Below are positions 4,199 through 58,672 of a stretch of 58,942 nucleotides of DNA, piece by piece. Below the pieces are notes generated by a model. It was not told the DNA's origin and made no database searches. It saw only the letters and a list, made by a program, of their open reading frames with translations. Origin of the DNA: Acidimicrobiia bacterium. Its GTDB lineage: Bacteria; Acidobacteriota; Vicinamibacteria; Vicinamibacterales; UBA2999. Where the stretch lies: contig VFZH01000005.1 of assembly GCA_016871255.1 (NCBI GenBank), positions 1 through 58,942 of the forward strand, given 5' to 3'. The first letter of the stretch is position 1. Each line of letters opens with the position of its first letter. The position numbers were made by a program, and so were the translations under genes.

Positions 4199-4385
4199 GC
4201 GCGGACGCGAAATCCCGAAGCCCAGAACCCGAATCCCAGACCAACTCCCAACGCCCGAATCCCAACGGGGCCAGTGTGCGCCTGCCGACTCCTTGGAGGT
4301 CGGGGCATTGGGATGTGGGATGCGGGACTTGACTTGGGATGTCGGATGCGGAGTGTGGGATTTGGACCCTCCCGTGCGTCCGCGC
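4199..4385. repeat. Family-B palindromic element: (AATCCCR)n arm, central hairpin, (YGGGATT)n arm, with 10-bp terminal inverted repeats
   Basis: GCGCGGACGC at 4199-4208 is the reverse complement of GCGTCCGCGC at 4376-4385. The left arm has 7 CCC tracts (4209-4266). The right arm has 5 GGG tracts (4306-4355). Confidence 0.85.
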
Positions 4386-4398
4386 ATACACTGTCTCC

Positions 4399-4980
4399 AT
4401 GGTGCTCACCCCTTCGACCATGCTCGACATCGGCACGGCGCTGCCTCCGTTCCGTCTTCCGGACACCAGCGGGAGAGAGGTGTCCGATCGCGACTTCGCG
4501 GACGCGAAGGGGCTGCTCGTCGCCTTCGTCTCGGTGCACTGCCCGTTCGTCAAGCTGATCCAGGACGAACTGGGGCGGTTCGGGGCCGAGTACCAGCCGA
4601 AGGGGCTGGCCATCGTGGCGATCGGCTCGAACGACCTGGCCACCTATCCCATGGACGGTCCGGAAGGCATGCGGCGGCAGGCCAGCGCCTGCGGCTGGAC
4701 GTTTCCCTGCCTGCTGGACGAGACGCAGGAGGTGGCGAAGGCGTTCCGGGCAGCCTGCACACCCGACTTCTTCCTGTTCGACGGCGACGGCACACTGGCG
4801 TACCGCGGGCAGTTCGACAGCAGCCGGCCGGGCAGTGGCATCGCACCAACCGGCGCCGACCTGCGGGCGGCCGCGGACGCGGTGCTTGCGGGCACAGCCG
4901 TGAGCGCGACGCAGAAGCCCAGCATCGGGTGCAACATCAAGTGGCGGGCCGGGAACGAGCCGCCCTGGTTCGGAGCCTGA
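4399..4980 (+). CDS. Thioredoxin-fold thiol-disulfide oxidoreductase (AhpC/TSA-like)
   Basis: MVLTPSTMLDIGTALPPFRLPDTSGREVSDRDFADAKGLLVAFVSVHCPFV... shows the typical redoxin N-terminus with a single active-site Cys context. The upstream in-frame ATG at 4339 lies inside the repeat and is less likely. Confidence 0.8.
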   Translation: MVLTPSTMLDIGTALPPFRLPDTSGREVSDRDFADAKGLLVAFVSVHCPFVKLIQDELGRFGAEYQPKGLAIVAIGSNDLATYPMDGPEGMRRQASACGWTFPCLLDETQEVAKAFRAACTPDFFLFDGDGTLAYRGQFDSSRPGSGIAPTGADLRAAADAVLAGTAVSATQKPSIGCNIKWRAGNEPPWFGA

Positions 4981-4995
4981 TTCCCCCAGGCGCGA

Positions 4996-6147
4996 TCAGA
5001 GCCGGCGCAACCGCCCGGCCGCGGCTTCCAGCGTCTCGTCCCGCTTCGCGAAGCAGAACCGGATCGTGGTCCCGGCCTCCGCCGTGTACAGGAACGGCGA
5101 CAGCGGAATCGCGGCCACGCCGCACTCGGCAATCAGGCGCTCGGCGAACGCGTGGTCCGGCTCGCTGGTCACGCGCGAGTAGTCCATCAGCTGGAAGAAC
5201 GTCCCGCGGCACGGCAGCGGTACGAGCTTCGAGCCGGCCAGCAGGCCGAGGAACAGGTTCCGCTTCCGCTCGTAGAACGCCGCCACCTCCCGGCACTCGG
5301 GATCGCGCCGGACGACGTCCGCGTACGCGAGCTGCACGGCGCCGTTCACGGCATAGGTCACCCACTGGTGCACGCGCCGGATCTCGGCCGTCAGCGCCGC
5401 CGGGGCGGCCGCGTAGCCGACCTTCCAGCCGGTCGTGCTGTAGGTCTTGCCGAACGAGCTGATGACCACGGCCCGCGACGACACGTCGGGATCGCGTGCC
5501 AGGCTCTCGTGCCTGGCCCCGTCGAACACGATGTGTTCGTACACCTCGTCGGACACCGCATAGGCGTCCGTGCCGGCGAGCACCTGCCGGAGCTGCTGCA
5601 GATCCTGCCAGTCGAGGATCGTCCCCGACGGGTTGTGCGGCGAGTTGAGGACGAGCAGCCTCGTCTTCGGCCCGATGGCCCGTCGCACGTCGTCCCAGTC
5701 GATGCGGTAGTCCCGCGCGCCGAGCGGCACGAACACGGGCGTCCCCCCGGCCAGCTGAATCGCCGGCACGTACGAGTCGTACACCGGCTCGAAGACGATG
5801 ACCTCGTCGCCGGAGTGGACGAGCGCCAGGATGGTGCTGAACAGCGCCTCGGTCGCGCCCGACGTGACGGTGATCTCGGTCTCCGGATCGTACCGGCGAC
5901 CGTAGAGATGGCGGATCTTCGCCGCCAGCGCCTCCCTGAGCTCCGGCACGCCGGCCATCGCCACGTACTGGTTGTGCCCCTCGCGCATCCGGGCCGCCAC
6001 GGCGTCCACCAGCGCGGGATCGCAGTCGAAATCCGGAAACCCCTGTGAGAGGTTGATGGCACCGTGTTCCGCGGTCAGACGCGTCATCACGGTGAAGATG
6101 GAATCGCCAGACGCGAGCTTCGACCGGGGATCGGGAGCGCGGCTCAT
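4996..6147 (-). CDS. Class I/II aminotransferase (methionine-aminotransferase/YbdL-like)
   Basis: MSRAPDPRSKLASGDSIFTVMTRLTAEHGAINLSQGFPDFDCDP..., NSPHNPSG and SFGKTYSTTGWKVGY (PLP-Lys motif). Start ATG at 6147 overlaps the upstream stop (ATGA). The track ORF is N-terminally over-extended. Confidence 0.9.
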   Translation of the reverse strand: MSRAPDPRSKLASGDSIFTVMTRLTAEHGAINLSQGFPDFDCDPALVDAVAARMREGHNQYVAMAGVPELREALAAKIRHLYGRRYDPETEITVTSGATEALFSTILALVHSGDEVIVFEPVYDSYVPAIQLAGGTPVFVPLGARDYRIDWDDVRRAIGPKTRLLVLNSPHNPSGTILDWQDLQQLRQVLAGTDAYAVSDEVYEHIVFDGARHESLARDPDVSSRAVVISSFGKTYSTTGWKVGYAAAPAALTAEIRRVHQWVTYAVNGAVQLAYADVVRRDPECREVAAFYERKRNLFLGLLAGSKLVPLPCRGTFFQLMDYSRVTSEPDHAFAERLIAECGVAAIPLSPFLYTAEAGTTIRFCFAKRDETLEAAAGRLRRL

Positions 6148-6425
6148 CGCTCTTCTCCCCCTCCGGTTCCGTTCTCCTCGGGCTCGAGCAGCTCCTCGGG
6201 TTGCCTGAGCGACGCCAGGGGGTACTTCCGTCTCAGCGCCACGACGCGGTCGTAGTAGCCGGCCTTCGGGATCTCGCGGCGCACGAGCCGGTCGCGCAGG
6301 CGGCGCAGCTCGAACCGGTACAGGTCGCGGACGAACTCCTGGACGACGGCGGGTGGGGTGTGGCCGGCTGGACGCACACCGTGCGCCAGCAGTTGATCGA
6401 CCAGGTCGCGTCGATAGCGGTACAT
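6144..6425 (-). CDS. Small hypothetical protein (93 aa), masked in the track by a longer spurious ORF
   Basis: MYRYRRDLVDQLLAHGVRPAGHTPPAVVQEFVRDLYRFELRRLRDRLVRREIPKAGYYDRVVALRRKYPLASLRQPEELLEPEENGTGGGEER. Codon use matches the neighbours (CTG, GAC, CGC, GAG, TTC, TAC). Its stop overlaps the aminotransferase ATG, and its last codons contain that gene's GGAGGGGGAG SD. Confidence 0.55.
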   Translation of the reverse strand: MYRYRRDLVDQLLAHGVRPAGHTPPAVVQEFVRDLYRFELRRLRDRLVRREIPKAGYYDRVVALRRKYPLASLRQPEELLEPEENGTGGGEER

Positions 6426-6440
6426 CGTCAACCGGGACAA

Positions 6441-6497
6441 AGCGAACCGGGCTGGATACTCGATCGGCCTGCCCGCGCAAATCCAGCCCGGTTCGCT
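6441..6497 (-). terminator. Perfect 17-bp stem-loop between ahcY and the small ORF (attenuator, processing site or weak terminator)
   Basis: AGCGAACCGGGCTGGAT (6441-6457) is the reverse complement of ATCCAGCCCGGTTCGCT (6481-6497), with a 23-nt loop. No clear U-tract follows on the minus strand. Confidence 0.4.
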
Positions 6498-6514
6498 GTT
6501 CCCGGCAGCTGGTC

Positions 6515-8017
<1,503 letters not shown>

Positions 8018-8314: not shown

Positions 8315-10219
8315 TCAGTCCGGAGCGCCGGCCGGCTGCGGGGCGGCAAGGTCGCCCCTGCCATCCAGCGTGCGTTCCAGCTCGCCCACCAGCGCGTCCA
8401 GCTCGGCGACGACGGCGCTCACCGTGTCCGGCCGCGTCAGGTCCACGCCAGCCTTCGCGAGCAGCCGGATGGGGTAGTCGCTCCCGCCCGCGCTCAGCAG
8501 GTCGAGGTAGCGCCGCACCGCCCCGGCCCGCTGGCCCTCGTTCGACGACCGGAGGTCCCGCATCAGCCAGGCGGTGGACGCGAAGCAGGTCGCGTACTGG
8601 TAGACGTAGTACGGCGTGGCGAAGAAGTGGGGGATCCGCGCCCAGGTCACCCGCGAGATCTCCTCGGCGTCGATCGCATCGCCGTAGTAGGCGTTGAGCA
8701 GCGCCCCGTAGATCGCGTTGAGCGTGTCGGCGGTGACCGGCTGGTCCTGCTCGACGAGGCGATGCGCCTGCAGTTCGCAGTCGGCGAAAAGGACCTGCGT
8801 GAAGAACGTCCCCGCGATGCTGTCGATCGCGTGCTGCAGCAGCACGACGCGCTCCTCCGGGCTGGTGGCGCGGGCCAGCATGAAGTCGAGGAAGAGCGCT
8901 TCGCTCAGCGTGGACGGCACCTCGGCCACGAAGATCTCGTAGGCGGCGTAGCGGAAGGGCTGCGCCCGGTGCGCGAGCAGCGTGTGCATCGAGTGGCCCA
9001 TCTCGTGGGCCAGCGTGAACACGGCGTCGAGCGTCTCGTTGTAGTTGAGCAGCATGTACGGGTGCGCCCCGTACACCGGGGCCGAATACGCGCCGCTCCG
9101 CTTGCCGCCGTGCTCGAAGACGTCGATCCAGCGATCCTCGAAGGCCTGCGTGACGTGGCGCTGGTACTCGCTCCCCAGCGGGGCGGCGGACGCCACCACC
9201 CACTCCAGCACCTCGTCGTAGGCGTACCGGCGATCCACGGCGGCCAGCGGCACGGCCGTGTCGAACAGCTTGTACTCCTGCACCCCGAGCGCGCGTTTCC
9301 GCAGGGCGTGATAGCGCCGGAGCGGCGCCACCCCGTCGCGGGCGACCCCGATCAGGGTCTCCACCACCGACGTGGGGATGTCGTTGGCGTGCAGCGCCGC
9401 CTCCAGCGTGGACCGGTACCCGCGGGCGCGCGCCGTGAACCAGTCGCGCTGGAGCACGCCGTTGTACAGGGTCGCGAACGTGTTCAGCGTGCCGGCGAAC
9501 GTGCCGTGAAACGCCCGGTAGGCCGCCGCCCGGTCCTCCTGGTTGCGGTTCGTCTCCAGCAGGGCCCGGTAGTTGCCGTAGGTCAGCGTGACCGTTTCTC
9601 CTGCCGCCAGCGTGATGGTCGGGTAGGTCACGTCTGCCGTCGTCAACGCGGTGTACGCTTCGTTCGGCACCCCGGCGAAGCGGCCGGCATAAGAGAGCAG
9701 CCGCTCGCCCTGTGCGTCGAGCACGTGCTCCTGCTCGTGGAACAGGCTCTCGATCGCGAACCGGTACACCGCCAGATCCGGATCCGCCTCCATCCAGGCC
9801 TGAATCGTGTCGAGCGGGACGGCCAGCAGCTCCGGGTTGAACCAGGAGGTGGCCTGCGCGTGTTTCGAGAAGAGGATCTGGACGCGCTGGCGCCGGGCGT
9901 TGATGGTGTTGTCGCGCTGGTCCTGGTCGTAGGTGAGCGCGGCGAAGTACCACACGCGGTACATCAGGGCCTCGGCCCGGTCCTGGGCACCCAGGGCCGC
10001 CAGCAGGGCCGCGCCGTCGCGGCCCAGCGTGCCTTCGAACGCGGGCATCGCCGCGATGGCCGTCTCGAGCTCCTGGTAGCACGCCTCCCAGTCGTCCCAG
10101 CCGCGACAGATCGCGGAGAGATCCCAGGTGTAGCGCTCGGGAATGGCAGACCGCAGGGTCTCGGCGCCGGCCCGGGGCCGAAATATTGACGATTGGAGAT
10201 TGGTGATTGAGGATTTCAT
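8315..10219 (-). CDS. pepF: Oligoendopeptidase F (M3B family)
   Basis: HEMGH zinc motif and length are typical. IPERYTWDLS near the N-terminus is typical of PepF. The only in-frame ATG is at 10219, inside a family-A array. Confidence 0.9.
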   Translation of the reverse strand: MKSSITNLQSSIFRPRAGAETLRSAIPERYTWDLSAICRGWDDWEACYQELETAIAAMPAFEGTLGRDGAALLAALGAQDRAEALMYRVWYFAALTYDQDQRDNTINARRQRVQILFSKHAQATSWFNPELLAVPLDTIQAWMEADPDLAVYRFAIESLFHEQEHVLDAQGERLLSYAGRFAGVPNEAYTALTTADVTYPTITLAAGETVTLTYGNYRALLETNRNQEDRAAAYRAFHGTFAGTLNTFATLYNGVLQRDWFTARARGYRSTLEAALHANDIPTSVVETLIGVARDGVAPLRRYHALRKRALGVQEYKLFDTAVPLAAVDRRYAYDEVLEWVVASAAPLGSEYQRHVTQAFEDRWIDVFEHGGKRSGAYSAPVYGAHPYMLLNYNETLDAVFTLAHEMGHSMHTLLAHRAQPFRYAAYEIFVAEVPSTLSEALFLDFMLARATSPEERVVLLQHAIDSIAGTFFTQVLFADCELQAHRLVEQDQPVTADTLNAIYGALLNAYYGDAIDAEEISRVTWARIPHFFATPYYVYQYATCFASTAWLMRDLRSSNEGQRAGAVRRYLDLLSAGGSDYPIRLLAKAGVDLTRPDTVSAVVAELDALVGELERTLDGRGDLAAPQPAGAPD

Positions 10220-10250
10220 TGACGATTGGCGATTGGCGATTGGCGATCGG
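10185..10250 (-). repeat. Family-A array (CAATCNC on the minus strand) spanning the pepF start codon
   Basis: Plus strand reads attgacgattggagattggtgattgaggatttcattgacgattggcgattggcgattggcgatcgg. Confidence 0.9.
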
Positions 10251-10659: not shown

Positions 10660-10700
10660 CTGTCCAGCATAGGCCGACTCGGGCGGGTCCGTTACATGGG

Positions 10701-10796
10701 TATTGGTGATCTGTGATTGGCGATTGGTGATTGCATTGGCGATTGGCGATTGGCGATTGGTGATTGCATTGACGATTGGTGATTGGCGATTGGGGG
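10701..10796 (-). repeat. Family-A array with a 33-nt higher-order period, in the divergent thioesterase/speA promoter gap
   Basis: GATTGGCGATTGGTGATTGCATTG occurs at 10715-10738 and again at 10748-10771. About 13 units of ATTGGYG/ATTGC. Confidence 0.9.
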
Positions 10797-10862
10797 CACG
10801 ACTTGCGCGTCCGGGTGATCTCGTGGCTGCGCGCGCGCGAAATGCGTTTATCATGGTCGGGA

Positions 10863-12827
10863 ATGAGCACGCTGACGAACGGTCGGCCGCGCGCCGCCAA
10901 CGGTGCGCCCGCTCCCGCCGCCGGCAGCACGACCAGCAGCGCCTGGTCGGTTCACGACGCCAGCGAGTTGTACGAAATCGCGCGCTGGGGCAACGGCTAC
11001 TTCAGCATCAACGGCATCGGCCACGTCCAGGTCCACCCGTCAAAGGACCCGGCATCGCACATCGACCTCAAGGAGCTGGTCGATCGTCTCCAGCTCCGCG
11101 GCATCGGCCTGCCGGTCCTCATCCGCTTCACCGACATCCTGAAACACCGGCTCGGCGACATCCACCACGCGTTCCAGTCGGCGATCAGTCAGCACCAGTA
11201 CCAGGGCGAATACTGCTGCGTGTACCCGATCAAGGTGAACCAGCAGCGCCAGGTGGTCGAAGAGGTGCTGAACTTCGGCCGGCCGTTCGGCTTCGGCCTC
11301 GAGGCCGGCTCCAAGCCGGAGCTGCTCGCCGTCATCGCCCTGGCGGACAACGACACGCCGATCATCTGCAACGGCTTCAAGGACACCGAGTACATCGAGA
11401 CCGCCATGCTCGCCCAGAAGATCGGGCGCACCATCATTCCGGTCGTCGAGAAGTACACCGAGCTCCCCCTGATCCTGGAGTACGCCGCCAAAGCCGGCGT
11501 CCGGCCGCAGATCGGCATGCGCGTGAAGCTCGCGTCGCGCGGCAGCGGGCGGTGGCAGTCCTCGGGCGGCTTCCGCTCCAAGTTCGGGCTCACGGTGACC
11601 GAGATCGTCCGGGGACTGGAGGAGCTGAAGAGCCACGGGATGCAGGACTGCCTCACGCTGCTGCACTTCCACCTCGGCAGCCAGATCACCAACATCCGCA
11701 TCGTCAAGGGAGCCCTGAACGAGGCCGCCCGCGTCTACACCGAGCTGGCCCGGATGGGCGCCGGCCTCCGCTACCTGGACGTCGGCGGCGGCCTCGGCGT
11801 GGACTACGACGGGTCGCAGACCAACTTCGAGTCGAGCATGAACTACTCGCTCGAGGAGTACGCCGCAGACGTCGTGTACCACGTCCAGACGGTATGCGAC
11901 GAAGCGGGGGTGGCGCACCCGACGATCCTCTCCGAGAGCGGACGCGCCGTCGTCGCCTACCACAGCCTGCTGGTGTTCAACGTCCTCGGCGTGTCCGCCT
12001 TCGGCGAGGAACGCGTGCCCACGGTGCCTGCGCCGGAGATGGAACAGCCGATCGTCGACCTGATCGAGACGCACAACAACGCGACCGCCCGGAACGCCGT
12101 CGAGGCCTTCCACGACGGCCAGGCGGCGCTCGACATGGCCCTCAGCCTCTTCTCCGCGGGCTACCTGCCGCTCGATCAGCGGAGCCTCGCCGAGAACCTC
12201 TTCTGGGCGCTCTGCACGAAACTGCGCAGGCTCACGCAGACGATGGCCGAAGTGCCGGAGGAGCTGCAGAACCTCGACGAGCAGCTCTCGGACACGGTCT
12301 TCTGCAACTTCTCGCTGTTCCAGTCGATTCCCGACAGCTGGGCAATCAAGCAGTTGTTCCCCGTGATGCCGATACACCGCCTGAACGAGCGGCCGACCAG
12401 CCACGCCGTGCTCGGCGACATCACGTGCGACTCGGACGGCAAGCTCGACCGGTTCGTCGATCGGCGCGACGTCAAGAAGACGCTGCCCCTCCACGAGGTC
12501 GGCGGCGAACCCTACTACCTCGGCGTCTTCCTCGTCGGCGCCTACCAGGAGATCCTGGGCGACCTGCACAACCTGTTCGGCGACACGCACGCCGTCCACG
12601 TCCGGCTCGACGAATCCGGGGTTGCCCGGCTCGATACGCTGATCAAGGGCGATACGGTGCGCGAGGTGCTGGACTACGTGGAGTTCGACGCCGACACGCT
12701 GCTCGGCAAGCTCCGCACCGACGTCGAAACCGCCGTCCGGGCCGGGCTGGTGGACTACGAGGGCGCCGGCCAGCTCCTGCGCTTCTACGAAGACGGCCTC
12801 AGCGGCTACACGTACCTCGAAGGATGA
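10863..12827 (+). CDS. speA: Biosynthetic arginine decarboxylase
   Basis: WSVHDASELYEIARWGNGYFSINGIGHVQV, YPIKVNQQ and LHFHLGSQ, with full SpeA length. The start is ATG 10863 or 10842. Confidence 0.92.
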   Translation: MSTLTNGRPRAANGAPAPAAGSTTSSAWSVHDASELYEIARWGNGYFSINGIGHVQVHPSKDPASHIDLKELVDRLQLRGIGLPVLIRFTDILKHRLGDIHHAFQSAISQHQYQGEYCCVYPIKVNQQRQVVEEVLNFGRPFGFGLEAGSKPELLAVIALADNDTPIICNGFKDTEYIETAMLAQKIGRTIIPVVEKYTELPLILEYAAKAGVRPQIGMRVKLASRGSGRWQSSGGFRSKFGLTVTEIVRGLEELKSHGMQDCLTLLHFHLGSQITNIRIVKGALNEAARVYTELARMGAGLRYLDVGGGLGVDYDGSQTNFESSMNYSLEEYAADVVYHVQTVCDEAGVAHPTILSESGRAVVAYHSLLVFNVLGVSAFGEERVPTVPAPEMEQPIVDLIETHNNATARNAVEAFHDGQAALDMALSLFSAGYLPLDQRSLAENLFWALCTKLRRLTQTMAEVPEELQNLDEQLSDTVFCNFSLFQSIPDSWAIKQLFPVMPIHRLNERPTSHAVLGDITCDSDGKLDRFVDRRDVKKTLPLHEVGGEPYYLGVFLVGAYQEILGDLHNLFGDTHAVHVRLDESGVARLDTLIKGDTVREVLDYVEFDADTLLGKLRTDVETAVRAGLVDYEGAGQLLRFYEDGLSGYTYLEG

Positions 12828-16160: not shown

Positions 16161-16195
16161 AGTCTACCGGAGCCTCGCGTCCCGCGCGAGAGGAA

Positions 16196-16233
16196 CGCGC
16201 GGACGCGAAATCCCGAATCCCGAATCCAAAATG
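16196..16233 (+). repeat. Family-B element, short copy with the conserved head
   Basis: CGCGCGGACGCGAAATCCCGAA at 16196-16217 is identical to 4198-4219, and is followed by tcccgaatccaaaatg. Confidence 0.85.
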
Positions 16234-16272
16234 CCACGGGCCGGGTCCTCTCGCGGAGGACCCGGCCCGTGG
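16234..16272 (-). terminator. Rho-independent-type terminator downstream of glnN
   Basis: Perfect 17-bp stem CCACGGGCCGGGTCCTC / GAGGACCCGGCCCGTGG with a 5-nt loop. On the minus strand it is followed by CAUUUUGG. Confidence 0.7.
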
Positions 16273-20377: not shown

Positions 20378-20920
20378 CTACTCGGCCCCCTCCCCCTTCG
20401 ACATCGTCGCGAGGCGGGCCACGCCGACGAGCAGCGGCCCGGGCGCGAGGTCGGGGCAGGTCGTGGCGGGCGGAAGGGGTCCCAGCCGGCGCAACGTCCG
20501 CGCCACCTCGTCGAAGCCCAGGCGGTCCGCGACGCACGGCGCGGCGCGATCGATTCCCCGGGCGAACGTCGCGCCGGTGCCGAGCAGCATCAGGACGATC
20601 GCCCGTCGATCCGCCGCAGCCGCCCAGACGATCGGCGGCACGAAGACCTCCTCGCCACCGGTCAGCTGCGGGTCATGCACGGGGATGAGCGCGTTGGGGT
20701 CCTGCCCGCGGCGGACGAAGTCGAACGCGCCGCGCACGTCGTCGTTCGCGATCGCCTCACCGAGCGAGCCGTGGATGCGGTAGCCCGCCTGCGCGCGGGC
20801 CGGTGCGGCGAGGCGCCACGCCTCCACCGCCACGAGCGCGACGGTGACGAGCACCGCGGGGATGGCCAGCGCCCACGCCAGCGTCCGCTCGCGACCGGCT
20901 GCGACGACGGGCGCGGTCAT
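20378..20920 (-). CDS. Membrane-anchored hypothetical protein (possible ankyrin-like repeats)
   Basis: ATG at 20920 overlaps the upstream stop (ATGA). There is one N-terminal TM helix (LAWALAIPAVLVTVALVAV), followed by AA..G....V..LL..GA-type repeats. Confidence 0.55.
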   Translation of the reverse strand: MTAPVVAAGRERTLAWALAIPAVLVTVALVAVEAWRLAAPARAQAGYRIHGSLGEAIANDDVRGAFDFVRRGQDPNALIPVHDPQLTGGEEVFVPPIVWAAAADRRAIVLMLLGTGATFARGIDRAAPCVADRLGFDEVARTLRRLGPLPPATTCPDLAPGPLLVGVARLATMSKGEGAE

Positions 20921-22533: not shown

Positions 22534-23531
22534 TGAAGCACGCCTCCGCCTTCTTCCGGCTGCTCGGCGATCCGACACGGCTCCGTCTGCTGCGGGTACT
22601 GGCCAGGGACCGCTTCAACGTCAGCGAGCTGACGGGCATCCTGGACCTGGCGCAGTCGGGGGTGTCCCGTCACCTGGGGCTGCTGAAAGAGGCCGGGCTG
22701 GTCGCGGAGGAGCGAGCCGGAGGCCACGCGTACTACCGCCTGGCCACGCCGGACGCGAACGGCCACGGCGCGGTCCGGCCGCTGCTCGAGGCCGAGTTCG
22801 GCGCCGCAGCGAACGACGGCGCGGTGCGCGCCGACGAGGCGCGGCTGCAGGAGGTCCTGCGGGTCCGCAAGGAGAACTTCGAGTCGCACGGCGAGGGCCG
22901 GCAGCTCGTGCCCGGCCGGAGCTGGGCGGCCTGGTCGCGCGCGCTCGGGCACCTGCTGCCGGCGCTCGACGTGGCCGATGTCGGGTGCGGCGAGGGGTAC
23001 CTGACCCTGGAGACCGCCCGCTGGGCGAAGGGCGTCGTTGGCATCGATCGCTCATCCGGCGTGCTGGCGCGCGCACGGGCGCTGGCCGCGCGGCGGCGGG
23101 TCTCGAACGTGCGGTGGAAGAAGGGAGACCTCGCGCATCTGCCGCTGCCGGATGCCGGCGTGGACGTGGTGCTGCTGTCGCAGGCGCTGCACCATGCGGC
23201 CCATCCGGCCCTCGCACTGGGCGAAGCCGCCCGCGTCCTCAGACCGGGCGGCCGCGTGCTGATCCTGGACCTGCGCCGGCACGCGGAAGGCTGGGTGCGC
23301 GACCGGCTCGGGGATCGGCGTCTGGGCTTCTCCGAACAGGAGCTCGTGGACCTCCTCGGCGAGGCGGGATTCGAGCGGCCCCGCATCACCACGGGGGCGC
23401 GCCACGCGGGCGACCCGTTTGTCGTCGTGATCGCCTCTGGCGTCAAGTCCCAGGTCCCGAATCCCGGATCCCAAGCCAAATCCCAACGCCCAGGTCCCAA
23501 AGGGCAGGCTCGGCTCCGCCGCAGGGCCTGA
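22524..23531 (+). CDS. ArsR-family HTH fused to a SAM-dependent methyltransferase-like domain (SahR-like regulator)
   Basis: N-terminus FFRLLGDPTRLRLLRVLARDRFNVSELTGILDLAQSGVSRHLGLLKEAGLV is an ArsR wHTH. The C-terminal part has VADVGCGEGYL (motif I) and VLRPGGRVLILD. It lies immediately upstream of metH. Alternative start ATG at 22533. Confidence 0.8.
   Translation: MDIMKHASAFFRLLGDPTRLRLLRVLARDRFNVSELTGILDLAQSGVSRHLGLLKEAGLVAEERAGGHAYYRLATPDANGHGAVRPLLEAEFGAAANDGAVRADEARLQEVLRVRKENFESHGEGRQLVPGRSWAAWSRALGHLLPALDVADVGCGEGYLTLETARWAKGVVGIDRSSGVLARARALAARRRVSNVRWKKGDLAHLPLPDAGVDVVLLSQALHHAAHPALALGEAARVLRPGGRVLILDLRRHAEGWVRDRLGDRRLGFSEQELVDLLGEAGFERPRITTGARHAGDPFVVVIASGVKSQVPNPGSQAKSQRPGPKGQARLRRRA
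23445..23503 (+). repeat. Family-B array (8 CCC tracts) inside the 3' end of the SahR-like ORF
   Basis: aagtcccaggtcccgaatcccggatcccaagccaaatcccaacgcccaggtcccaaaggg. Confidence 0.9.
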
Positions 23532-23537: not shown

Positions 23538-23612
23538 CTCACCAGTCGCCAATCGTCAATCGTCAATCATCAATCGCCAATGCAATCGTCAATCCCCAAT
23601 CCCCAATCCCCA
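23538..23612 (+). repeat. Family-A array (CAATC orientation) with a CTCACCAGTCGCC head, ending at the metH ATG
   Basis: ctcaccagtcgccaatcgtcaatcgtcaatcatcaatcgccaatgcaatcgtcaatccccaatccccaatcccca, followed by ATG. Confidence 0.9.
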
Positions 23613-27311
<3,699 letters not shown>

Positions 27312-38909: not shown

Positions 38910-39017
38910 GTGGAAGAGTGGAAGAGTGGAAAAGTGGAAAAGTGGAAGAGTGGAAAAGTGGAAAAGTGAAGTCGGAAGGGGGAAGTGAGAAGTTCGAAGT
39001 AAGTGGGAAGTGGGGAG
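38910..39017 (+). repeat. Family-C array: 7 tandem GTGGAARA octamers followed by a degenerate purine-rich tail
   Basis: 38910-38965 is (GTGGAAGA/GTGGAAAA)x7. The plus strand has no C from 38910 to 38972. It lies between convergent genes. Confidence 0.9.
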
Positions 39018-39659: not shown

Positions 39660-40652
39660 CTACACGCGGGGCGCCAGGTCGATCCCCATCTCGGGATGAG
39701 GCGTGTACAGCTCCTCGAGGAACCGCACCTCCTCCGCCTCGAGCGTCAGGTCGATGGCCCCGACCGCCGTATCCAGGTTCTCCGGCTTCGTCGTGCCCAG
39801 GATGGGCGCCGTCACCCCCTTGGCGTACAGCCACGCCAGGGCAACCTGCGCGGGCGGCACACCCCGGCGCTCGGCCACGGTTCTGCAGCGCTCTGCGATC
39901 GCGAAGTCCCCGTCGGCCGTGTACAGGCGATGCGCCAGCTTGTCCGTCTTCGCCCTCAGGGTGGCAGAGGCGCCATCCCGCGTTCGCGTGCCCACCAGCA
40001 CGCCACGCGCGAGCGGGCTCCACGGGATGAGCCCGATCCCTTCCTTCCGGCAGAGCGGGATCATCTCGCGCTCCTCTTCCCGGTACACCAGGTTGTAGTG
40101 GTTCTGCATCGAGATGAACCGCGACCAGCCGCGGCTGTCGGCCAGCGCCAGCGCCTGGGCGAACTCCCACGCCCAGCAGCTCGAGGCGCCGATGTAGCGC
40201 GCCTTGCCGGCGCGGACGATGTCGTCGAGCGCCCGCAGCGTTTCGTCGATCGGCGTGGCCGGATCCCACCGGTGAACCTGGTACAGGTCGACGTAATCAG
40301 TGCCCAGCCGCCGGAGGGAGGCATCAATGGCGTCGAAGAGGTGCTTGCGGGACAGTCCGCGATCGTTCGGACCGGTTCCGGTCGGGTAGAACGCCTTGGT
40401 CGCGATCACCACCTGATCGCGGCGGCCGAAGTCGCCGAGAGCCCGGCCGACAACCTCCTCGCTGGCGCCCGCCGAATACATGTCGGCCGTGTCGAAGAAG
40501 TTGATGCCGAGGTCGAGCGCGCGCCGGATGATCGCGCGGCTGGGCTCCTCGTCGAGGGCCCACTCACGCCACGTCGACGTGCCCAGGCCCATGCACCCGA
40601 GGCAGATGCGCGAGACCTTCAGGCCGCTTCGACCGAGAGCGATGTAGTGCAT
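39660..40652 (-). CDS. Aldo/keto reductase
   Basis: MHYIALGRSGLKVSRICLGCMGLG, INFFDTADMYSAGASEEVVGRAL and DLYQVHRWD. ATG 40652 by homology. An in-frame ATG 33 nt upstream (40685) lies in the repeat. Confidence 0.9.
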   Translation of the reverse strand: MHYIALGRSGLKVSRICLGCMGLGTSTWREWALDEEPSRAIIRRALDLGINFFDTADMYSAGASEEVVGRALGDFGRRDQVVIATKAFYPTGTGPNDRGLSRKHLFDAIDASLRRLGTDYVDLYQVHRWDPATPIDETLRALDDIVRAGKARYIGASSCWAWEFAQALALADSRGWSRFISMQNHYNLVYREEEREMIPLCRKEGIGLIPWSPLARGVLVGTRTRDGASATLRAKTDKLAHRLYTADGDFAIAERCRTVAERRGVPPAQVALAWLYAKGVTAPILGTTKPENLDTAVGAIDLTLEAEEVRFLEELYTPHPEMGIDLAPRV

Positions 40653-40778
40653 TGAGGATTGGTGATTGGGGATTGACGATTTCATTGGCGATTGGTCGAT
40701 TGGCCAATTAGCCAATTAGCCGATTGGCCAATCTAGCCGATTGGTCGACTGGTCGATTGGCCAATTGGTCCATTGGCG
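40651..40778 (-). repeat. Family-A array (CAATC on the minus strand) ending at the aldo/keto reductase ATG
   Basis: The plus strand shows GATTGG-type units and three TTGGCCAA palindromes. Confidence 0.9.
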
Positions 40779-40782: not shown

Positions 40783-40872
40783 CTCTCAAGTCGTCAATCG
40801 CCATCAATCGTCAATCGTCAATCCTCAATCGACCAATACAATCATCAATCATCAATCCGCAATCATCAATCT
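40783..40872 (+). repeat. Family-A array (CAATC on the plus strand), head-to-head with the 40651-40778 array
   Basis: Head CTCTCAAGTCGTCA, then caatcgccatcaatcgtcaatcgtcaatcctcaatcgaccaatacaatcatcaatcatcaatccgcaatcatcaatc. Confidence 0.9.
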
Positions 40873-43040: not shown

Positions 43041-43098
43041 GTGATTGACCATTGGCGATTGCCTTGACGATTGGCGATTGGGGATTTGGCGATTGACC
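43041..43098 (-). repeat. Family-A array (GATTG on the plus strand) overlapping the aldolase start
   Basis: gtgattgaccattggcgattgccttgacgattggcgattggggatttggcgattgacc. Confidence 0.85.
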
Positions 43099-44820: not shown

Positions 44821-44888
44821 GCGGACTCGAAATCCCAAAGCCCAAATCCCGAATCCCAAGCCCAATCCCAGGACCCAAATCCCAAAGT
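44821..44888 (+). repeat. Family-B array with a conserved head, in a divergent promoter gap
   Basis: GCGGACTCGAAATCCC head (15/16 identical to 4201-4216). There are 8 CCC tracts separated by 3-4 nt. Confidence 0.9.
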
Positions 44889-47681: not shown

Positions 47682-47759
47682 CGATTGGTGATTGAGGATT
47701 GATGATTGGGGATTGATTGAAAATTGAAAATTGAGGATTGAGGATTGAGGATTGAGGAT
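47682..47759 (-). repeat. Family-A array starting immediately after the ALDH stop codon
   Basis: cgattggtgattgaggattgatgattggggattgattgaaaattgaaaattgaggattgaggattgaggattgaggat. Confidence 0.9.
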
Positions 47760-48542: not shown

Positions 48543-48544
48543 GG

Positions 48545-53252: not shown

Positions 53253-53253
53253 C

Positions 53254-55116: not shown

Positions 55117-55222
55117 GACGCACCTCCTGAGGACCGGATCACGCCAGGTCGCGAAATCGCGAAATCCGGGTGATCATAGATCGGTTGCACTTACCCGATC
55201 CGTCTCCTGTTCAGAGGTGCTC

Positions 55223-56434
55223 ATGCTGAGAAGGCTTGCCATGCTCGTGCTGCTGCTGTTCCCCGTCCTCCCGGCCGCGCAGGTGGCGGAGTGGTACCAG
55301 TGGCGAGGTCCCCATCGCGACGGCAAGTCGCCGGAGACCGGGCTCCTCTCGTCGTGGCCGCAGGGGGGGCCGCCGCTCCTCTGGCGCTCCACGGGCAACG
55401 GCAACGGCTACTCGTCGTTCTCCGCCTCGAACGGCCGGCTGTACACGCTCGGCGCGCGCGGTGGGACCGAGTACGTCATCGCGCTGGACGCCTCCACCGG
55501 GAAGCGGATCTGGGAGACCAGGACCGGAGAGCTGTTTTCGAACGATCGCGGAGATGGTCCCCGCGGCACGCCGGTCCTCGACGGCAGCCGGCTCTACGCA
55601 CTTGGCGGCAACGGTGATCTCGTGTGTCTGGACGTGGCCACCGGAAAGCCGATCTGGACGAAGAACGTGCTGAACGCGTTCCGGGGACCGCTTCCCTACT
55701 GGGGCATCAGCGAGTCACCGCTGATCGTGGACGATCGCGTGCTGGTCAACGCCGGTGGCCCGGGCGCCTCGATCGTGGCGCTGAACAAAGGGACGGGGGC
55801 CACTCTCTGGCAGACGACACACAGCGATCCCGCCGGCTATTCGTCGGCGGTGCTGACAACGGCCGGCGGCGCCCGCCAGGCGGTGTTCTTCACGGAGGAG
55901 AACGCCGTGGGCGTGGAGGTGGCCAGCGGCAAGGTCCTGTGGACCTACGACCGCGCGAACAACGGGACGGCCAACGTCGCGACCCCGATCGTCAGCGGCA
56001 ACCGCGTGTTCGTGTCGTCGGCGTACGGCACCGGCGGCGCCCTGCTCGAGCTGGCCCCGGCCGGTGCGCGCGAGGTCTACTTCACGCGCGACATGATGAA
56101 CCATCACGCCTCGTCGGTCCTGGTCGGCGAGCACCTGTATGGCTTCTCGAACTCGATCCTCACGGCCATGCGCTTTGCGGACGGCCAGGTGGCGTGGCGG
56201 GATCGCAGCGTGGGCAAGGGGTCGATCATCTGGGCCGACGACCGGCTCTACCTGTTCAGCGAGAACGGCGTGGTGGGGCTGGCGGAAGCGAACCCGACGC
56301 GGTACGTGGAGCACGGCCGGTTCCGGATCGATCCGGGGAGCTACCCCACATGGAGCCACCCCATCATCACGGGAGGCAGGCTGATCATCCGCGAGCAGGG
56401 CAACGTGTACGCCTACGATGTGCGCGCCCGCTAG
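55223..56434 (+). CDS. PQQ-like (BamB-like) beta-propeller repeat protein, secreted
   Basis: Signal peptide, WYQWRGPHRDGKS, and repeated G.L.ALDA.TGK..W blades. Confidence 0.85.
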   Translation: MLRRLAMLVLLLFPVLPAAQVAEWYQWRGPHRDGKSPETGLLSSWPQGGPPLLWRSTGNGNGYSSFSASNGRLYTLGARGGTEYVIALDASTGKRIWETRTGELFSNDRGDGPRGTPVLDGSRLYALGGNGDLVCLDVATGKPIWTKNVLNAFRGPLPYWGISESPLIVDDRVLVNAGGPGASIVALNKGTGATLWQTTHSDPAGYSSAVLTTAGGARQAVFFTEENAVGVEVASGKVLWTYDRANNGTANVATPIVSGNRVFVSSAYGTGGALLELAPAGAREVYFTRDMMNHHASSVLVGEHLYGFSNSILTAMRFADGQVAWRDRSVGKGSIIWADDRLYLFSENGVVGLAEANPTRYVEHGRFRIDPGSYPTWSHPIITGGRLIIREQGNVYAYDVRAR

Positions 56435-56593
56435 TGCAGCGCAGGCGAGATGGCGTCAAGGGATCGCGGTCGAGGCGGGTGCAGCCGCCAGGCGGCGCGA
56501 CGAGGAATACCGCCTGTATTGCGAGGAGCGCCAACGTCGCGGATGCGCCTGCATCGGCCGCGAGGATTGATGCGATCTCGCCTGCGCTGCACT
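56433..56593. repeat. 161-nt element bounded by a perfect 19-bp inverted repeat
   Basis: AGTGCAGCGCAGGCGAGAT (56433-56451) is the reverse complement of ATCTCGCCTGCGCTGCACT (56575-56593). Inner pairings GCGTCAA/TTGATGC, CGCGACG/CGTCGCG and AATAC/GTATT extend the fold. Confidence 0.7.
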
Positions 56594-56684
56594 GGCCTCG
56601 GCACACGGCGGTGACCTGCTGGAGGGGGCGGGAGACGCCCTGGCCTCGGCGATGGCCGATCGTTCCTGACGGGCTGCGGGGGCG

Positions 56685-57146
56685 TCAGGGGACCCGGGGT
56701 GGCTCGCTGGTCACCAGCACGATCTTCCCGGCGTGATCGCCGGACTCGATGCGCCGATGAGCATCGCCTGCGCATTCGAGGGGAAACGTGCTGTCGATGA
56801 CCGGCGCGATCTCACCGCGTTCGAGCAGCGGCCAGACCTCCTGCCGCACTGCTGCGGCGATGGCCCCCTTCTCTTCGGCGCTCCGTGACCGCAGCGTCGA
56901 GCCGGTCACCGACAGGCGACGGCTCAGGATGGGCCACAGGTCGATCGTGGCCGAGGCGCCCTGCTGGAAGCCGATCTGGACCAGCCTCCCGCCCGGCGCC
57001 AGCGCGCGCAGGTTGCGGTTGACGTAGTTGCCGTCAACGATGTCCAGGATCAGGTCGACCCCGCGCCCGCCGGTCGCCCGACGCACCACCTCCACGAAGT
57101 CTTCGGTACGGTAGTTGAGCCCGCTTCGGGACTTGGGATCTCGCAT
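56685..57146 (-). pseudogene. 5'-truncated NAD(P)H:quinone oxidoreductase (MDR family) remnant
   Basis: The 153-aa ORF equals only the C-terminal half of Qor-type enzymes (NYRTEDFVEVVRRATGGRGVDLILD...GKIVLV). The GroES-like domain and the nucleotide-binding glycine motif are absent. The upstream gene ends 10 nt away. Confidence 0.6.
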
Positions 57147-57156
57147 GTCTGCCGCC

Positions 57157-58167
57157 CTACCGGTATCGCTCCTTGATGGTCGGAATCAGGTAGTCGTCGA
57201 AGGCGGTGGTGAAATCGAACTTCGGCGAGAAGCCCCAGTCCTGCCGGGCGGCGCTGTCGTCCACCTCCGCCGGCCACGAGTCCACGATCGCCTGCCGCTT
57301 CGCGTCCGCCGAGTACCAGATGTCCGCGTCGGGGAACGCCTTCAGCACGGCGTCTCGGACCTCCTCGGCCGTCGGGCTGAAGGCGCTGAGGTTGTACGCG
57401 TACCGGGTGAGCGCCTCCGGATGGGCAGCCGCGAGCGCCAGCAGCGCATCCACGGCGTCCGGCATCGCCATGAACGGGATCTTCGTGTTGGGCCTGACGA
57501 AGCACGCGTACGGCTTGCCGGTGGCGGCCGCGTGGATCATCTCCGGCGCGTAGTCGGACGTGCCGCCGGACGGCAGCGTCATCGCCGAAATCAGTCCGGG
57601 GAACCGCACCGAGCGGAAGTCCACGCGCGGCTCGACCCCGCTCGCCAGCTGCTTGTAGTGGCGTCCGTAGTACCGGCCGAGGTGCTCGCAATACAGCTTG
57701 TTGCACCCGTACATCGTCCGCGGCTGGTTGTAATCCTCCTCCCGGACCGGCGGGATGCCGGCCTTGGTCTCCGCGTCGGGCATGCCGTAGACGGCAATGG
57801 ACGACGGGTAGAGGAAGGCGACCGGGCGCCCGTGCGACTCGCCTTCGTGCTGCGCCAGCTCGAGAAGGTTCAACGTGCCGGCCACGTTGACGTCGTGAGC
57901 CGTCAACGGCGTGAACTCCGACCGTGTCGAAAGCAACGCTGCCAGGTGGTAGATCCGATCGACCTCGAACTCCGCGAGCACGCGCTCGAGCAGGCCACGA
58001 TCGAGGATCGACCCGGTCAGCTCGCGCCGCACGTGCCTGGCCAGCGCCGGGTCCAGCGGCGTCACGTCGATCGTGACGATCGCCGCATCGGCCACGGCCA
58101 GCCGCTCGATGAGCGCGTGACCGATCTCGCCGTTGGCGCCAGTGATCAGGACAGCGGGGGTTCTCAC
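57157..58167 (-). CDS. NAD-dependent epimerase/dehydratase-family protein (short-chain L-threonine dehydrogenase-like)
   Basis: VLITGANGEIGHAL and YGCNKLYCE (YxxxK), 336 aa. GTG start. Confidence 0.85.
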   Translation of the reverse strand: MRTPAVLITGANGEIGHALIERLAVADAAIVTIDVTPLDPALARHVRRELTGSILDRGLLERVLAEFEVDRIYHLAALLSTRSEFTPLTAHDVNVAGTLNLLELAQHEGESHGRPVAFLYPSSIAVYGMPDAETKAGIPPVREEDYNQPRTMYGCNKLYCEHLGRYYGRHYKQLASGVEPRVDFRSVRFPGLISAMTLPSGGTSDYAPEMIHAAATGKPYACFVRPNTKIPFMAMPDAVDALLALAAAHPEALTRYAYNLSAFSPTAEEVRDAVLKAFPDADIWYSADAKRQAIVDSWPAEVDDSAARQDWGFSPKFDFTTAFDDYLIPTIKERYR

Positions 58168-58178
58168 GGGAGAGTCAG

Positions 58179-58239
58179 ATCAAATCCCAAAGCCCGAAGC
58201 CCAAAGCCCAAGCCAGATCCCAAGGACCAAATCCCAAAG
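58179..58239 (+). repeat. Family-B array in a divergent gap
   Basis: atcaaatcccaaagcccgaagcccaaagcccaagccagatcccaaggaccaaatcccaaagc (6 CCC tracts). Confidence 0.9.
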
Positions 58240-58273
58240 CAGCGCGTCACGCTGCCCTTGTCACGCCGCGCCA

Positions 58274-58346
58274 CTCGCCAGTCCTCAATCCTTCAATCGC
58301 CAATCGCCAACGCATTCCCCAATCGACAATCCTCAATCTCCATTGC
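58274..58346 (+). repeat. Family-A array (CAATC orientation) with a CTCGCCAGTCCTC head
   Basis: ctcgccagtcctcaatccttcaatcgccaatcgccaacgcattccccaatcgacaatcctcaatctccattgcc. Confidence 0.9.
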
Positions 58347-58363
58347 CACGATACACTCCCTCC

Positions 58364-58597
58364 ATGACTCGTGACGAGCGGCAGGAGGTGCTGAAGATCG
58401 TCGACGCCCACACGCGGACGATCGGTGTCTGCGAGGCGTGCGCCAGAACGACGCGGGACCTTGCAGCCGAAGTCGCCCGCGGCAGCCTGCCCCCGCGAGA
58501 CGACCTGAAACGCACTGTCGACGAAGCCGAACGGGTGCTGACCGAGCTGGCGGACGTACGGAAAGAGGTGGAACGGCTGCGGCGATCCCTGAACTGA
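58364..58597 (+). CDS. Small hypothetical coiled-coil protein (77 aa)
   Basis: MTRDERQEVLKIVDAHTRTIGVCEACARTTRDLAAEV...VRKEVERLRRSLN. G/C-rich third positions, followed by a strong hairpin. Confidence 0.5.
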   Translation: MTRDERQEVLKIVDAHTRTIGVCEACARTTRDLAAEVARGSLPPRDDLKRTVDEAERVLTELADVRKEVERLRRSLN

Positions 58598-58635
58598 TGC
58601 GTGAGGCTTGAGGTCAGCGTTGGGAATTCGGGATT

Positions 58636-58665
58636 CCCCGGCCGCGCGTCCGCGCGCGGCCGGGG
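58636..58665. terminator. Bidirectional GC hairpin between convergent genes
   Basis: Perfect 13-bp stem CCCCGGCCGCGCG / CGCGCGGCCGGGG with loop TCCG. It contains the CGCGTCCGCGCG motif shared with family-B heads and is preceded by a short GGGAATTCGGGATT copy. Confidence 0.65.
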
Positions 58666-58672
58666 ATCGTCG

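Follow-up and report, generated by a model that had tools for sequence, protein, structure and literature searches.

The DNA analysed here (the window) is a 58,942-nt soil-type acidobacterial stretch from a metagenome (GenBank VFZH01000005.1), a single whole contig from its source organism to which all density figures refer, and it carries 15 arrays of tandemly repeated 7- and 8-nt units, labelled A1-A8, B1-B6 and C, most of them in the gaps between genes. The gene map, built from third-position GC and then Pfam annotation, revealed ordinary chromosomal genes (MetH, AdoHcy hydrolase, two glutamine synthetases and arginine decarboxylase) together with peptidases, oxidoreductases, a two-component system and TonB-type outer-membrane proteins, with MetH being 75-78% identical to proteins named Vicinamibacterales, Acidobacteriota. 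Genes flanking the arrays belong, by the same annotation, to housekeeping metabolism and share no common function. No transposase, RAYT or phage genes were found among the Pfam-annotated genes of the 59-kb window, ARAGORN detected no tRNA or tmRNA genes in it, and the Rfam search that a first-pass annotation of this DNA had recommended returned no matches at the gathering threshold over its whole length. Looking up the exact protein sequence of the M24 peptidase gave no record.

Together the 15 arrays total 1,208 nt, or 2.05% of the window, and 91% of their bases fall in the 10.4% of the window that is intergenic, such that they make up 17.8% of intergenic DNA. Units of 7 nt occur at 14 dispersed loci, eight belonging to family A (CAATCNC) and six to family B (AATCCCR), and one further array, family C, has the 8-nt unit GTGGAARA. 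Their enrichment is strong, with 36 matches to GATTGNNGATTG in the window against 0.03 expected from shuffles and 13 matches to AATCCCNAATCCC (at most one mismatch) against 0.09 expected, and Tandem Repeats Finder independently recovered the arrays, with period 7 and 7-12 copies at A1-A8, B4 and B5. Array GC content is 37-65%, as opposed to 69% for the window, which is GC-rich throughout. The first-pass annotation had listed the same 15 arrays and described a G-depleted strand; all were present where it had placed them, and the enrichment counts and strand composition show them to be non-random and G-depleted on one strand. Families A and B are not sharply separate: A3 finishes with three CAATCCC units, which read AATCCCC in another phase. 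Higher-order periods of 24, 26 and 33 nt, at 95-97% identity, are also present within the window's arrays, and the array-bearing gaps comprise eight between co-directional, three between divergent and two between convergent genes.

Evaluating the family A arrays individually, we found that several are fused to the starts of conserved genes. A1 (10185..10250), a (CAATCNC)n array on the minus strand, straddles the start of an M3 oligopeptidase gene, whose ATG (10219-10217) lies within ...GTCAATGAAATCC... and whose lower 35 nt of array encode MKSSITNLQSSI. No alternative start codon precedes the conserved PERYTW when this N-terminus is compared with that in L123, which is one of four syntenic loci from relatives (L121-L124, the nearest at ~76% MetH identity), and the NCBI and JGI calls both give 634 aa. 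A3 (23538..23612, plus strand; 31 C and 7 G in 75 nt) opens with the head CTCACCAGTC, continues as (CAATCNC)n, ends in ...CCCCAATG and occupies the entire gap from the stop of an ArsR-methyltransferase gene to the MetH ATG (23613), 0 nt away. Because a second in-frame CAATG lies within A3 at 23580, the NCBI and JGI calls disagree on the MetH start, placing it at 23613 or 23580. A4 (40651..40778, G-poor strand minus) runs into the ATG (40652-40650) of an aldo-keto reductase (AKR) with a 2-nt overlap; alignment of the AKR N-terminus MHYIALGRSGLKVSR with MEHINLGKTGLKVSR in L121 and MDYVNLGRTGLKVSR in L122 confirmed this start, and the NCBI and JGI lengths agree. Two more arrays face starts from a short distance. 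A2 (10701..10796, G-poor strand minus) ends 41 nt upstream of the GTG (10659) of a 4HBT thioesterase, immediately before a conserved TATGCT-N6-GTG box, includes a higher-order repeat of 33 nt and has an RNA minimum free energy (MFE) of -12.9 versus -21.9 for shuffles, whereas A8 (58274..58346, plus strand; head CTCGCCAGTC, then (CAATCNC)n) is separated by ATACACTCCCTCC from the ATG (58364) of a 77-aa open reading frame (ORF) 17 nt away.

The remaining family A arrays and family C lie against stop codons. A5 (40783..40872, G-poor strand plus, head CTCTCAAGTC) ends 7 nt from the stop of a convergently read glyoxalase gene, and on the minus-strand transcript A4 forms the 3' arm of a long hairpin with this inverted partner (-98 kcal/mol, z = -7.6). 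A6 (43041..43098, G-poor strand minus) ends 15 nt from the stop of a convergently read FAD/BBE oxidase gene, is enclosed by a short GC stem (fold -40.3, z = -2.0) and, with its G-rich strand sense, probably overlaps the TTG start of an HpcH aldolase, itself a candidate start. A7 (47682..47759), which reads (GATTGAG)n on the plus strand and is G-poor on the minus strand, begins 0 nt after the stop TAG of a convergently read ALDH gene, and the next gene, 40 nt downstream, has its own GGAGG. C (38910..39017), with (GTGGAARA)n on the plus strand holding only 2 C and a 24-nt higher-order period, starts 1 nt after the stop of the plus-strand gene at 38315-38908 and ends 9 nt before the stop of a convergent matrixin-like gene; its G-poor minus strand has 2 G in 108 nt and an MFE of 0.

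Family B is more varied in its settings. B1 (4199..4385), between a TauE stop and an AhpC/TSA start, had been described as a single array and is instead an inverted pair, with an AATCCCR arm at 4210-4267 (G-poor on plus) and a GGGATK arm at 4307-4372 (G-poor on minus) closed by GCGCGGACGC / GCGTCCGCGC; it folds at -92 kcal/mol (z = -2.1) with the closing stem in the centroid, its heads face outward, and both of its G strands carry G-quadruplex (G4) motifs. B2 (16196..16233, plus strand) consists of the head CGCGCGGACGCG followed by AAATCCCGAATCCCGAATCC. On the minus strand at 16234-16272, after the GlnA-III stop, a 17-bp GC hairpin precedes CATTTTGGAT, the U-rich tail of which is the start of B2, and this is the sole terminator-like site in the scanned B2 region; the B2 head additionally pairs with a near copy at 16175-16190 in a second hairpin, and folding at B2 gave -86.1 kcal/mol (z = -7.3). 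B3 (23445..23503, plus strand) is a degenerate AATCCCR array translated as the C-terminal, non-conserved tail KSQVPNPGSQAKSQRPGPKG... of the ArsR-SAM-methyltransferase ORF, which has 335 aa in both the NCBI and JGI calls. B4 (44821..44888, plus strand; head GCGGACTCG, then an AAATCCC array) sits in a divergent gap with the cupin start 64 nt and the M24 peptidase start 116 nt away and is thus not boundary-proximal. B5 (58179..58239, plus strand), an AAATCCC/AAAGCCC array 11 nt from an epimerase GTG, has its G-rich strand sense for that gene and lies 34 nt upstream of A8, giving the same B-spacer-A layout as B3/A3. B6 (58615..58637, minus strand), a short B copy in inverted orientation that lies 17 nt past the 77-aa ORF's stop, directly adjoins a perfect GC hairpin (58638-58667; z = -2.3 on plus, -4.0 on minus) whose core is the head CGCGTCCGCGCG.

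These placements qualify two earlier statements. The arrays had been called entirely intergenic, yet reading frames extend into A1, B3, A4 (2 nt) and probably A6, and a mostly promoter-proximal location applies to the arrays at starts but not to the roughly half that lie at gene ends, six of which (A5, A6, A7, C, B6 and B2) abut stop codons. What unites most arrays is a polarity toward gene boundaries. In all eight family A arrays the 3' end of the G-poor strand lies at most 41 nt from a gene boundary, while the distances on the 5' side are 19, 66, 6, 101, 130, -13, 40 and 106 nt. A1-A8, C, B6 and B2 all obey one rule: just before a start the G-rich strand is antisense, and just after a stop it is sense.

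Scanning 185,579 species genomes for four GATTGNN units returned at least 120 stretches, with Acidobacteriota, Planctomycetota, Chloroflexota, Cyanobacteria, Bacteroidota, Verrucomicrobiota, Gemmatimonadota, Xanthomonadales and others among the matches listed. We scored polarity by asking whether the 3' or the 5' end of the G-poor strand lay within 30 nt of a gene boundary, and we used array-masked gene calls in place of a gene-call-free orientation test, which was confounded because the TTG in GATTG counts as a start. Across the 120 genome loci listed, GATTGNN arrays placed the 3' end at a boundary 56 times (25 starts, 31 stops) and the 5' end 15 times (p = 1e-6), and unrelated skewed units in the same loci did so 41 versus 18 times (p = 0.004). 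Viral loci, collected by searching for GATTG, for the reversed core GTTAG and for GTATG, revealed the same tendency, at 297 versus 150 for all units in 284 loci (p = 3e-12) and 160 versus 71 for those fetched with the control core GTTAG (p = 5e-9). Arrays first scored as inside genes mostly lay near the 5' end of over-extended ORFs with the G-poor strand sense, and belong to the start class; in other phyla, many genes end in TGATTG or TAGATTG. We dropped the idea that GATTG is a uniquely favoured core, as the GTTAG viral scan also gave at least 120 stretches and GTATG gave 44, numbers that yield no quantitative ratio. As a separate observation, Oscillochloris sp. ZM17-4 (locus L031, 2940-3250) carries four ~69-nt higher-order repeats that begin 16 nt from a gene start; in each, a fixed 35-nt spacer TCCGGATCCCGACCGAGCAGGCACAGATAAATTGCA accompanies a GATTG array, and an inverted CAATC array follows the four copies.

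These counts bear directly on the proposal that G4 or i-motif structures in DNA or RNA modulate transcription or translation at the arrays. Canonical motifs of four G3+ runs do occur on the G strand of B1, B3, B4 and B5, and in vitro G4 formation by oligonucleotides of the related units has been described (Rehm et al. 2015, PMC4692102), but A1-A8, C, B2 and B6 have no such motif and 139 of the 146 GATTGNN arrays cannot form G4 while still scoring 54 versus 15 (p = 2.6e-6). Since arrays without G4 potential show the same polarity, G4 is ruled out as its general cause, and a G4-based role for the arrays seems to us very unlikely. Short-period arrays with a G/C skew show this polarity generally, in bacteria as well as in their viruses, and independently of G4.

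The two strands of such arrays differ sharply in what a ribosome or a folding transcript would encounter. For 254 skewed arrays, the G-poor versus the G-rich strand had an MFE of 0 in 153 versus 41 arrays (MFE per nt, p = 2e-36), 6 versus 131 start codons per kb, 0.3 versus 28 Shine-Dalgarno (SD)-like tetramers per kb and 12 versus 74 stop codons per kb. Because the G-poor strand is nearly without start codons, SD-like motifs, stops and structure, strand content offers an account of array orientation beside genes. Directional growth of arrays toward the gene was also considered, but the homogeneity gradient that it predicts was absent (18 versus 21 arrays, p = 0.39).

At the start codons themselves, the ATGs of MetH, AKR and the M3 peptidase are built from the repeat (...CAATG), and these array-fused genes (A3, A4 and A1) have the weakest SD match in the window, 1 of 5 positions. 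Eight genes of the window have a perfect GGAGG, so the organism does use SD sequences. The MFE of A3 together with the MetH start (111 nt) is -2.2 kcal/mol, and folds of positions -60 to +30 gave -1.7 kcal/mol for MetH, -11.0 for AKR and -15.1 for the 77-aa ORF, relative to a mean of -30.6 for 48 genes and of -34.4 (standard deviation 7.4) for random 90-nt windows. The absence of local structure permits SD-independent initiation, and on this basis the G-poor leaders may support SD-independent translation. Unstructured, SD-independent leaders were one of four roles put forward in the first-pass annotation and fit best among them, but only for the start-abutting subset A1, A3, A4 and possibly A8. 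Two others of the four, Rho loading and protein binding, are kept below as less likely alternatives. Arrays acting as sigma-70 promoters were rejected: the TTGNNG units lack usable -35/-10 geometry, and a promoter scan, run on the B2 region only, found none.

A strand that is C-rich, G-poor and unstructured could also be read by Rho. On that account, RNA running toward a gene would load Rho, serving transcription-translation coupling at starts and stopping antisense or read-through transcription before the gene at convergent ends, so that one mechanism would cover a G-poor strand that always reads toward the nearest gene, whichever direction the gene has. Composition fits well, as A3 (31 C to 7 G, MFE -2.2) and the complement of C (2 G in 108 nt) both attain the ~70-80 nt or more of C-rich, G-poor, unstructured RNA typical of rut sites, with a UC dimer every 7 nt and an MFE of ~0. 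However, the methyltransferase-metH operon that contains A3 is conserved, and Rho loaded there would have polar effects on expression; moreover, a rut site need not abut its gene within 0-30 nt; we consider Rho loading an unlikely explanation.

About equally doubtful is a translational regulon in which the heptad arrays serve as platforms for a single-stranded RNA-binding protein that contacts ~7 nt per domain (S1, a cold-shock-domain protein or similar). The 7-nt period, the strand-specific placement right at start codons and the reuse of one unit at many loci of one genome would all suit such a reader, and a role of this kind has likewise been proposed for TAACTGA repeats and for Nostoc recO/recF. 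However, units differ entirely between related genomes (CAATCNC, GGGGCCA, AAGGTCA, GTTCCGAG) while polarity is independent of the unit, and a compositional property therefore fits better than a sequence-specific reader; the flanking genes, moreover, share no function and no gene of the window codes for a candidate reader. Among the family A units, many include ATTGG/CCAAT, a Y-box core that has been reported for cold-shock proteins. Elsewhere GG follows GATT in only ~20% of GATTGNN units, and we keep the cold-shock Y-box idea only as part of this RNA-binder alternative.

The arrays also share non-periodic heads, which the first-pass annotation had read correctly. Direct comparison confirmed that the copies of the B head CGCGCGGACGCGAAATCCCGAA at 4198 and 16196 share exactly 22 identical nt and that the head matches at 15 of 16 positions at 44821, and the heads of A2, A3, A5, A7 and A8 are as it had reported. 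CTCNC[CA]AGTC opens A3, A5 and A8, six arrays carry [CA]AGTC at their 5' edge, a motif with a background frequency of 0.001 per nt, and GCGGAC[GT]CG lies 0-13 nt upstream of five of the seven B arrays, forming half of a GC hairpin in three cases. The reported recurrence of the 12-mer CGCGTCCGCGCG holds for three exact copies beside B arrays, with the third at 58645-58656, one base off the position given before, but when one mismatch is allowed the 12-mer is not enriched (9 versus 11 expected), and only those three exact copies are meaningful. A scan of a metagenome collection with the 20-nt B head returned six chance matches inside unrelated coding sequences and no arrays. Beside these, GTCGCGAAATCGCGAAATCC at 55147-55167 consists of two copies of an 8-mer in a divergent gap with no full array; it has CGCGAAATCC in common with the B head-array junction and could be either a proto-array or one that has decayed.

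From the heads it had been concluded that the arrays are related elements and not independent slippage products. The non-periodic heads are real, but the 24-, 26- and 33-nt duplications point to slippage in situ, and the head's AGTC is one transition from the unit's AATC. We read the heads as a real but modest signal that the arrays of this genome are related or were seeded alike, and not as evidence of transposition. The bolder version, in which non-autonomous mobile elements of the MITE (miniature inverted-repeat transposable element) or REPIN kind carry the arrays and insert beside genes, could draw on the 22-nt identical head common to B1 and B2, on the 10-nt terminal inverted repeats of B1 and its folding as one unit, on the B-spacer (34 nt)-A layout seen twice and on a Y1 transposase-family gene near metH in L121. 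Several observations run contrary to it: B1, the only array with terminal inverted repeats, has no target-site duplication (flanks GGTGAGC and ATACACT); the window encodes no transposase, RAYT or Y1 transposase; beyond the head, copies differ in length and unit order; no array-associated head copies turned up in the metagenome collection; the [CA]AGTC head mirrors the A/G alternation of Nostoc CCCCA(A/G)T; and the same gaps in relatives hold different units. The selfish-element role suggested in the first-pass annotation thus finds no backing, and we judge mobility to be highly improbable.

Our comparison with relatives points instead to arrays gained in place. L121-L124 lack A1, A2, A3/B3 and A4 at the corresponding junctions. 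In the relatives, methyltransferase and metH overlap or lie 4-32 nt apart; in L123, the M3-4HBT gap is 25 nt and the 4HBT-arginine decarboxylase gap 122 nt, versus 50 nt (with A1 partly extending into the M3 ORF) and 203 nt in the window, and in L123 GGAGAG precedes the M3 ATG by five nt. Relatives carry arrays of their own, several as inverted pairs, with units such as GGGGCCA/CCCTCGC, GGGAGATC, AAGGTCA/AAGGGCA and (GTTCCGAG)6/(CCTCGGAA)5, and one of these sits in the same DUF349-GlnA-III gap as B2. The 24-, 26- and 33-nt periods are a signature of recent multi-unit duplication in place, and the repeat structure suggests that the arrays originated by slippage. In L122 (356-447) and L121 (6060-6130, 6509-6630), we additionally observed hairpins in which both arms are tandem 7-9-mers, for instance (GTTCCGAG)6 abutting (CCTCGGAA)5, and template switching is one possible source of such matched arms.

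Length is constant within the sampled population. Ten same-population contigs (Logan, ENA and JGI), which are consensus sequences from several other sequencing runs and assemblies in which minority variants are invisible, showed no gaps across B1, A4, A5, A6, C, B5, A8 and B6, in a clonal sample of low power. The copy-number comparison that the first-pass annotation had proposed as a test of slippage polymorphism thus gave no indels in eight arrays and ten contigs of an essentially clonal population, and the arrays are not visibly hypervariable. This observation bears on the possibility that they are contingency loci, in which hypermutable repeats gain or lose 7-nt units and thereby switch or tune expression. 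Heptamer simple sequence repeats (SSRs) do tune expression in Haemophilus influenzae, and with 35 nt of A1 inside the M3 peptidase ORF a one-unit change would be a frameshift. However, the lack of indels in these consensus contigs and the housekeeping metabolism of the flanking genes, as opposed to surface structures, make contingency the least probable of the explanations we weighed, and Rehm et al. 2015 (PMC4692102) took the same view of their repeats. Among the population contigs, L139 and L134 end inside A4 (40693) and B5 (58192), and such short-read contig ends indicate that the arrays fragment assemblies. JGI contig L140 is identical to window 56428-58669 apart from three substitutions in codons 3-6 of the 77-aa ORF, has unrelated DNA upstream (L140 1-3758) and represents either a rearranged, co-existing strain or a chimeric assembly.

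Bringing these lines together, we favour, with moderate confidence, an explanation in which the arrays are neither genes, RNA families nor transposons but long SSRs of the bacterial heptanucleotide class (short tandemly repeated repetitive, STRR, or GGGNATC type), generated by slippage, filtered by constraints at the level of translation and forming SD-less leaders where they meet starts. Arrays would arise in place by slipped-strand or unequal duplication of 7-8-nt units and, in this lineage, would have been added to otherwise conserved gene junctions, after which transcript-level (translation) constraints would decide which orientation survives beside a gene. Next to a start, only a G-poor sense strand would avoid upstream false starts, decoy SD motifs and structure, and an array touching the start would become a structure-free, SD-less leader ending in ...CAATG, as proposed for MetH, AKR and M3, with A8 being 17 nt from its start. 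Next to a stop, the G-rich sense orientation would supply stops in all frames (A5, A6, A7, C, B6 and B2). Inverted pairs (A5/A4 and B1) are predicted to fold as long hairpins between co-directional genes, and B-type arrays adjoin GC hairpins, with B2 providing the putative U-rich tail of its terminator-like site.

Two sets of side observations in the window concern start regions. The motif ATACACTNNCTCC occurs three times, each on the plus strand (4386-4401, 33429-33445 and 58351-58366), and at 4386 and 58351 exactly 6 nt separate its TACACT from the start ATG, that of AhpC/TSA and that of the 77-aa ORF, respectively, a spacing that is the geometry of a putative -10 box on a leaderless mRNA. 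Similarly, TATGCT-N6-GTG/ATG at 4HBT (10660-10680, minus) is conserved between the window and L123 (1232-1356), as is TATCAT/TATGAT-N7-9-ATG at arginine decarboxylase (10845-10865, plus), with a protein identity of ~76% between the two; these conserved -10-like boxes, 6-7 nt before start codons, suggest that leaderless mRNAs are common in this clade. Further, a palindrome ATATCCATGCATGTAGATTCATGGAT (22500-22530) at the ArsR-SAM-methyltransferase gene, whose start it overlaps, is also conserved in L122 and L123 and is probably an ArsR-type autoregulatory operator of the methyltransferase-metH operon. Elsewhere, two adjacent, overlapping ORFs of 180 and 462 aa (20378-22305, minus) have good coding statistics and lack a Pfam match.

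Several points weigh against the slippage-and-filtering explanation. B1, B4 and B5 break the polarity rule, the first through its outward-facing heads and the last through its G-rich sense strand, and gene calls at the comparison loci behind the polarity counts came from a simple, array-masked heuristic based on ORFs and third-position GC. A8 and B1 are followed by TACACT-N6-ATG, whose leaderless geometry would put these arrays upstream of the promoter and not in a leader, and the AKR start is, in its long-range context, buried in the A5/A4 hairpin, which would hinder initiation. Tolerance, moreover, explains why a G-rich sense strand avoids starts better than it explains why a G-poor sense strand avoids stops, and slippage alone accounts neither for the shared heads nor for the reuse of one unit at many loci. 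If the explanation were extended, G-free heptamer leaders would be widespread SD-independent start regions and gene-boundary insulators in bacteria and phages, read by a heptad-spaced single-strand binder (S1 or a cold-shock-domain protein) or by Rho, with each genome using its own unit to form lineage-specific post-transcriptional regulons; we offer this as a speculative conjecture that is probably wrong as a whole.

In practical terms, the arrays break short-read assemblies and mislead start-codon calling. More broadly, the polarity seen in more than 400 loci across many phyla and viruses, together with the measured differences between strands, makes the puzzle of these repeats simply testable.

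Heptamer arrays have been known since work on cyanobacterial STRRs around 1990 and are abundant in many large, often GC-rich genomes. Although the first-pass annotation recognised no named family, the arrays match this described class (cyanobacterial STRRs; Rehm 2015; MacGregor 2015). Rehm et al. 2015 (PMC4692102) reported dispersed heptamers, GGGAATC in Xanthomonas and GGGGA(T/C)T in Nostoc PCC 7120, that are ~90% intergenic, with the G-rich strand antisense at most 50 bp upstream of an ORF or sense at most 50 bp after a stop, sometimes overlapping it. Inverted pairs were frequent, flanking genes came from all functional classes, most repeats were transcribed, loci were kept between two Xanthomonas species while lengths varied, and no function could be assigned, with G-quadruplexes being favoured. 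The window shares with those genomes the tandem heptamers, intergenic bias, inverted pairs, polarity and mixed flanking genes. Its family B YGGGATT is one base from the Xanthomonas GGGAATC, the last three CAATCCC units of A3 are the Nostoc unit, that is, the classical cyanobacterial STRR1 CCCCA(A/G)T, and the AGTC head variant mirrors the A/G alternation of the latter. Unlike Xanthomonas and Nostoc, the organism belongs to Vicinamibacterales (Acidobacteriota), its dominant CAATCNC/GNGATTG unit lacks G-tracts and cannot form G4, and it adds the 8-mer GTGGAARA family, conserved heads and GC hairpins with family B. Density is also far higher, at 15 arrays in the 59-kb window versus ~185 per 5-Mb Xanthomonas genome. 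G4 potential was an emphasis of Rehm 2015 and not part of the older STRR definition, and because A1-A8, C, B2 and B6 lack a motif of four G3+ runs, we place the arrays in the broader SSR class and not among G4 repeats.

The start-fused arrays A3, A4 and A1 resemble the TAACTGA repeats known from marine Beggiatoaceae as well as some cyanobacteria and Bacteroidetes (MacGregor 2015, PMC4679880), which lie near SD-less start codons, show indels in 7-nt steps between close strains and were proposed to have a translational role with S1, Csp or CsrA as readers. Both sets place G-poor 'forward' heptamers within a few nt of SD-less starts, whereas the window differs in its unit, in having 8-18 copies versus 2-6 and in having half of its arrays at stops or in hairpin pairs. 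In Nostoc PCC 7120, heptamers are found upstream of both recF and recO, overlapping the recO ATG, and a translational role was suspected in an experimental study whose effects were small and mixed and which established no mechanism (preprint 10.1101/2022.06.06.494920). REP, BIME and REPIN elements resemble the arrays in being intergenic, often after stops, in forming inverted hairpin doublets and in their GC-rich palindromic cores (compare the B head), but REP units are imperfect palindromes of 20-40 nt, while the window's units are direct repeats of 7-8 nt, families A and C have no palindromic unit and no RAYT is present in the window. Phase-variable SSRs such as that of the Haemophilus influenzae hmw1A promoter likewise have a 7-nt tandem unit, placed either upstream of a gene or within its 5' end, but the ten clonal-population contigs show no length variation and the genes concerned are housekeeping genes of an environmental organism. 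On balance, the arrays are a new example of the known heptamer class, sharing its defining features with the exception of the G4 potential that families A and C lack. The arrays add the phylum Acidobacteriota to that class at very high density, as well as arrays fused to housekeeping start codons whose counterparts in relatives have ordinary junctions, with an SD sequence in at least one case, and through their non-G4 family they show that the published gene-boundary polarity is independent of G4.

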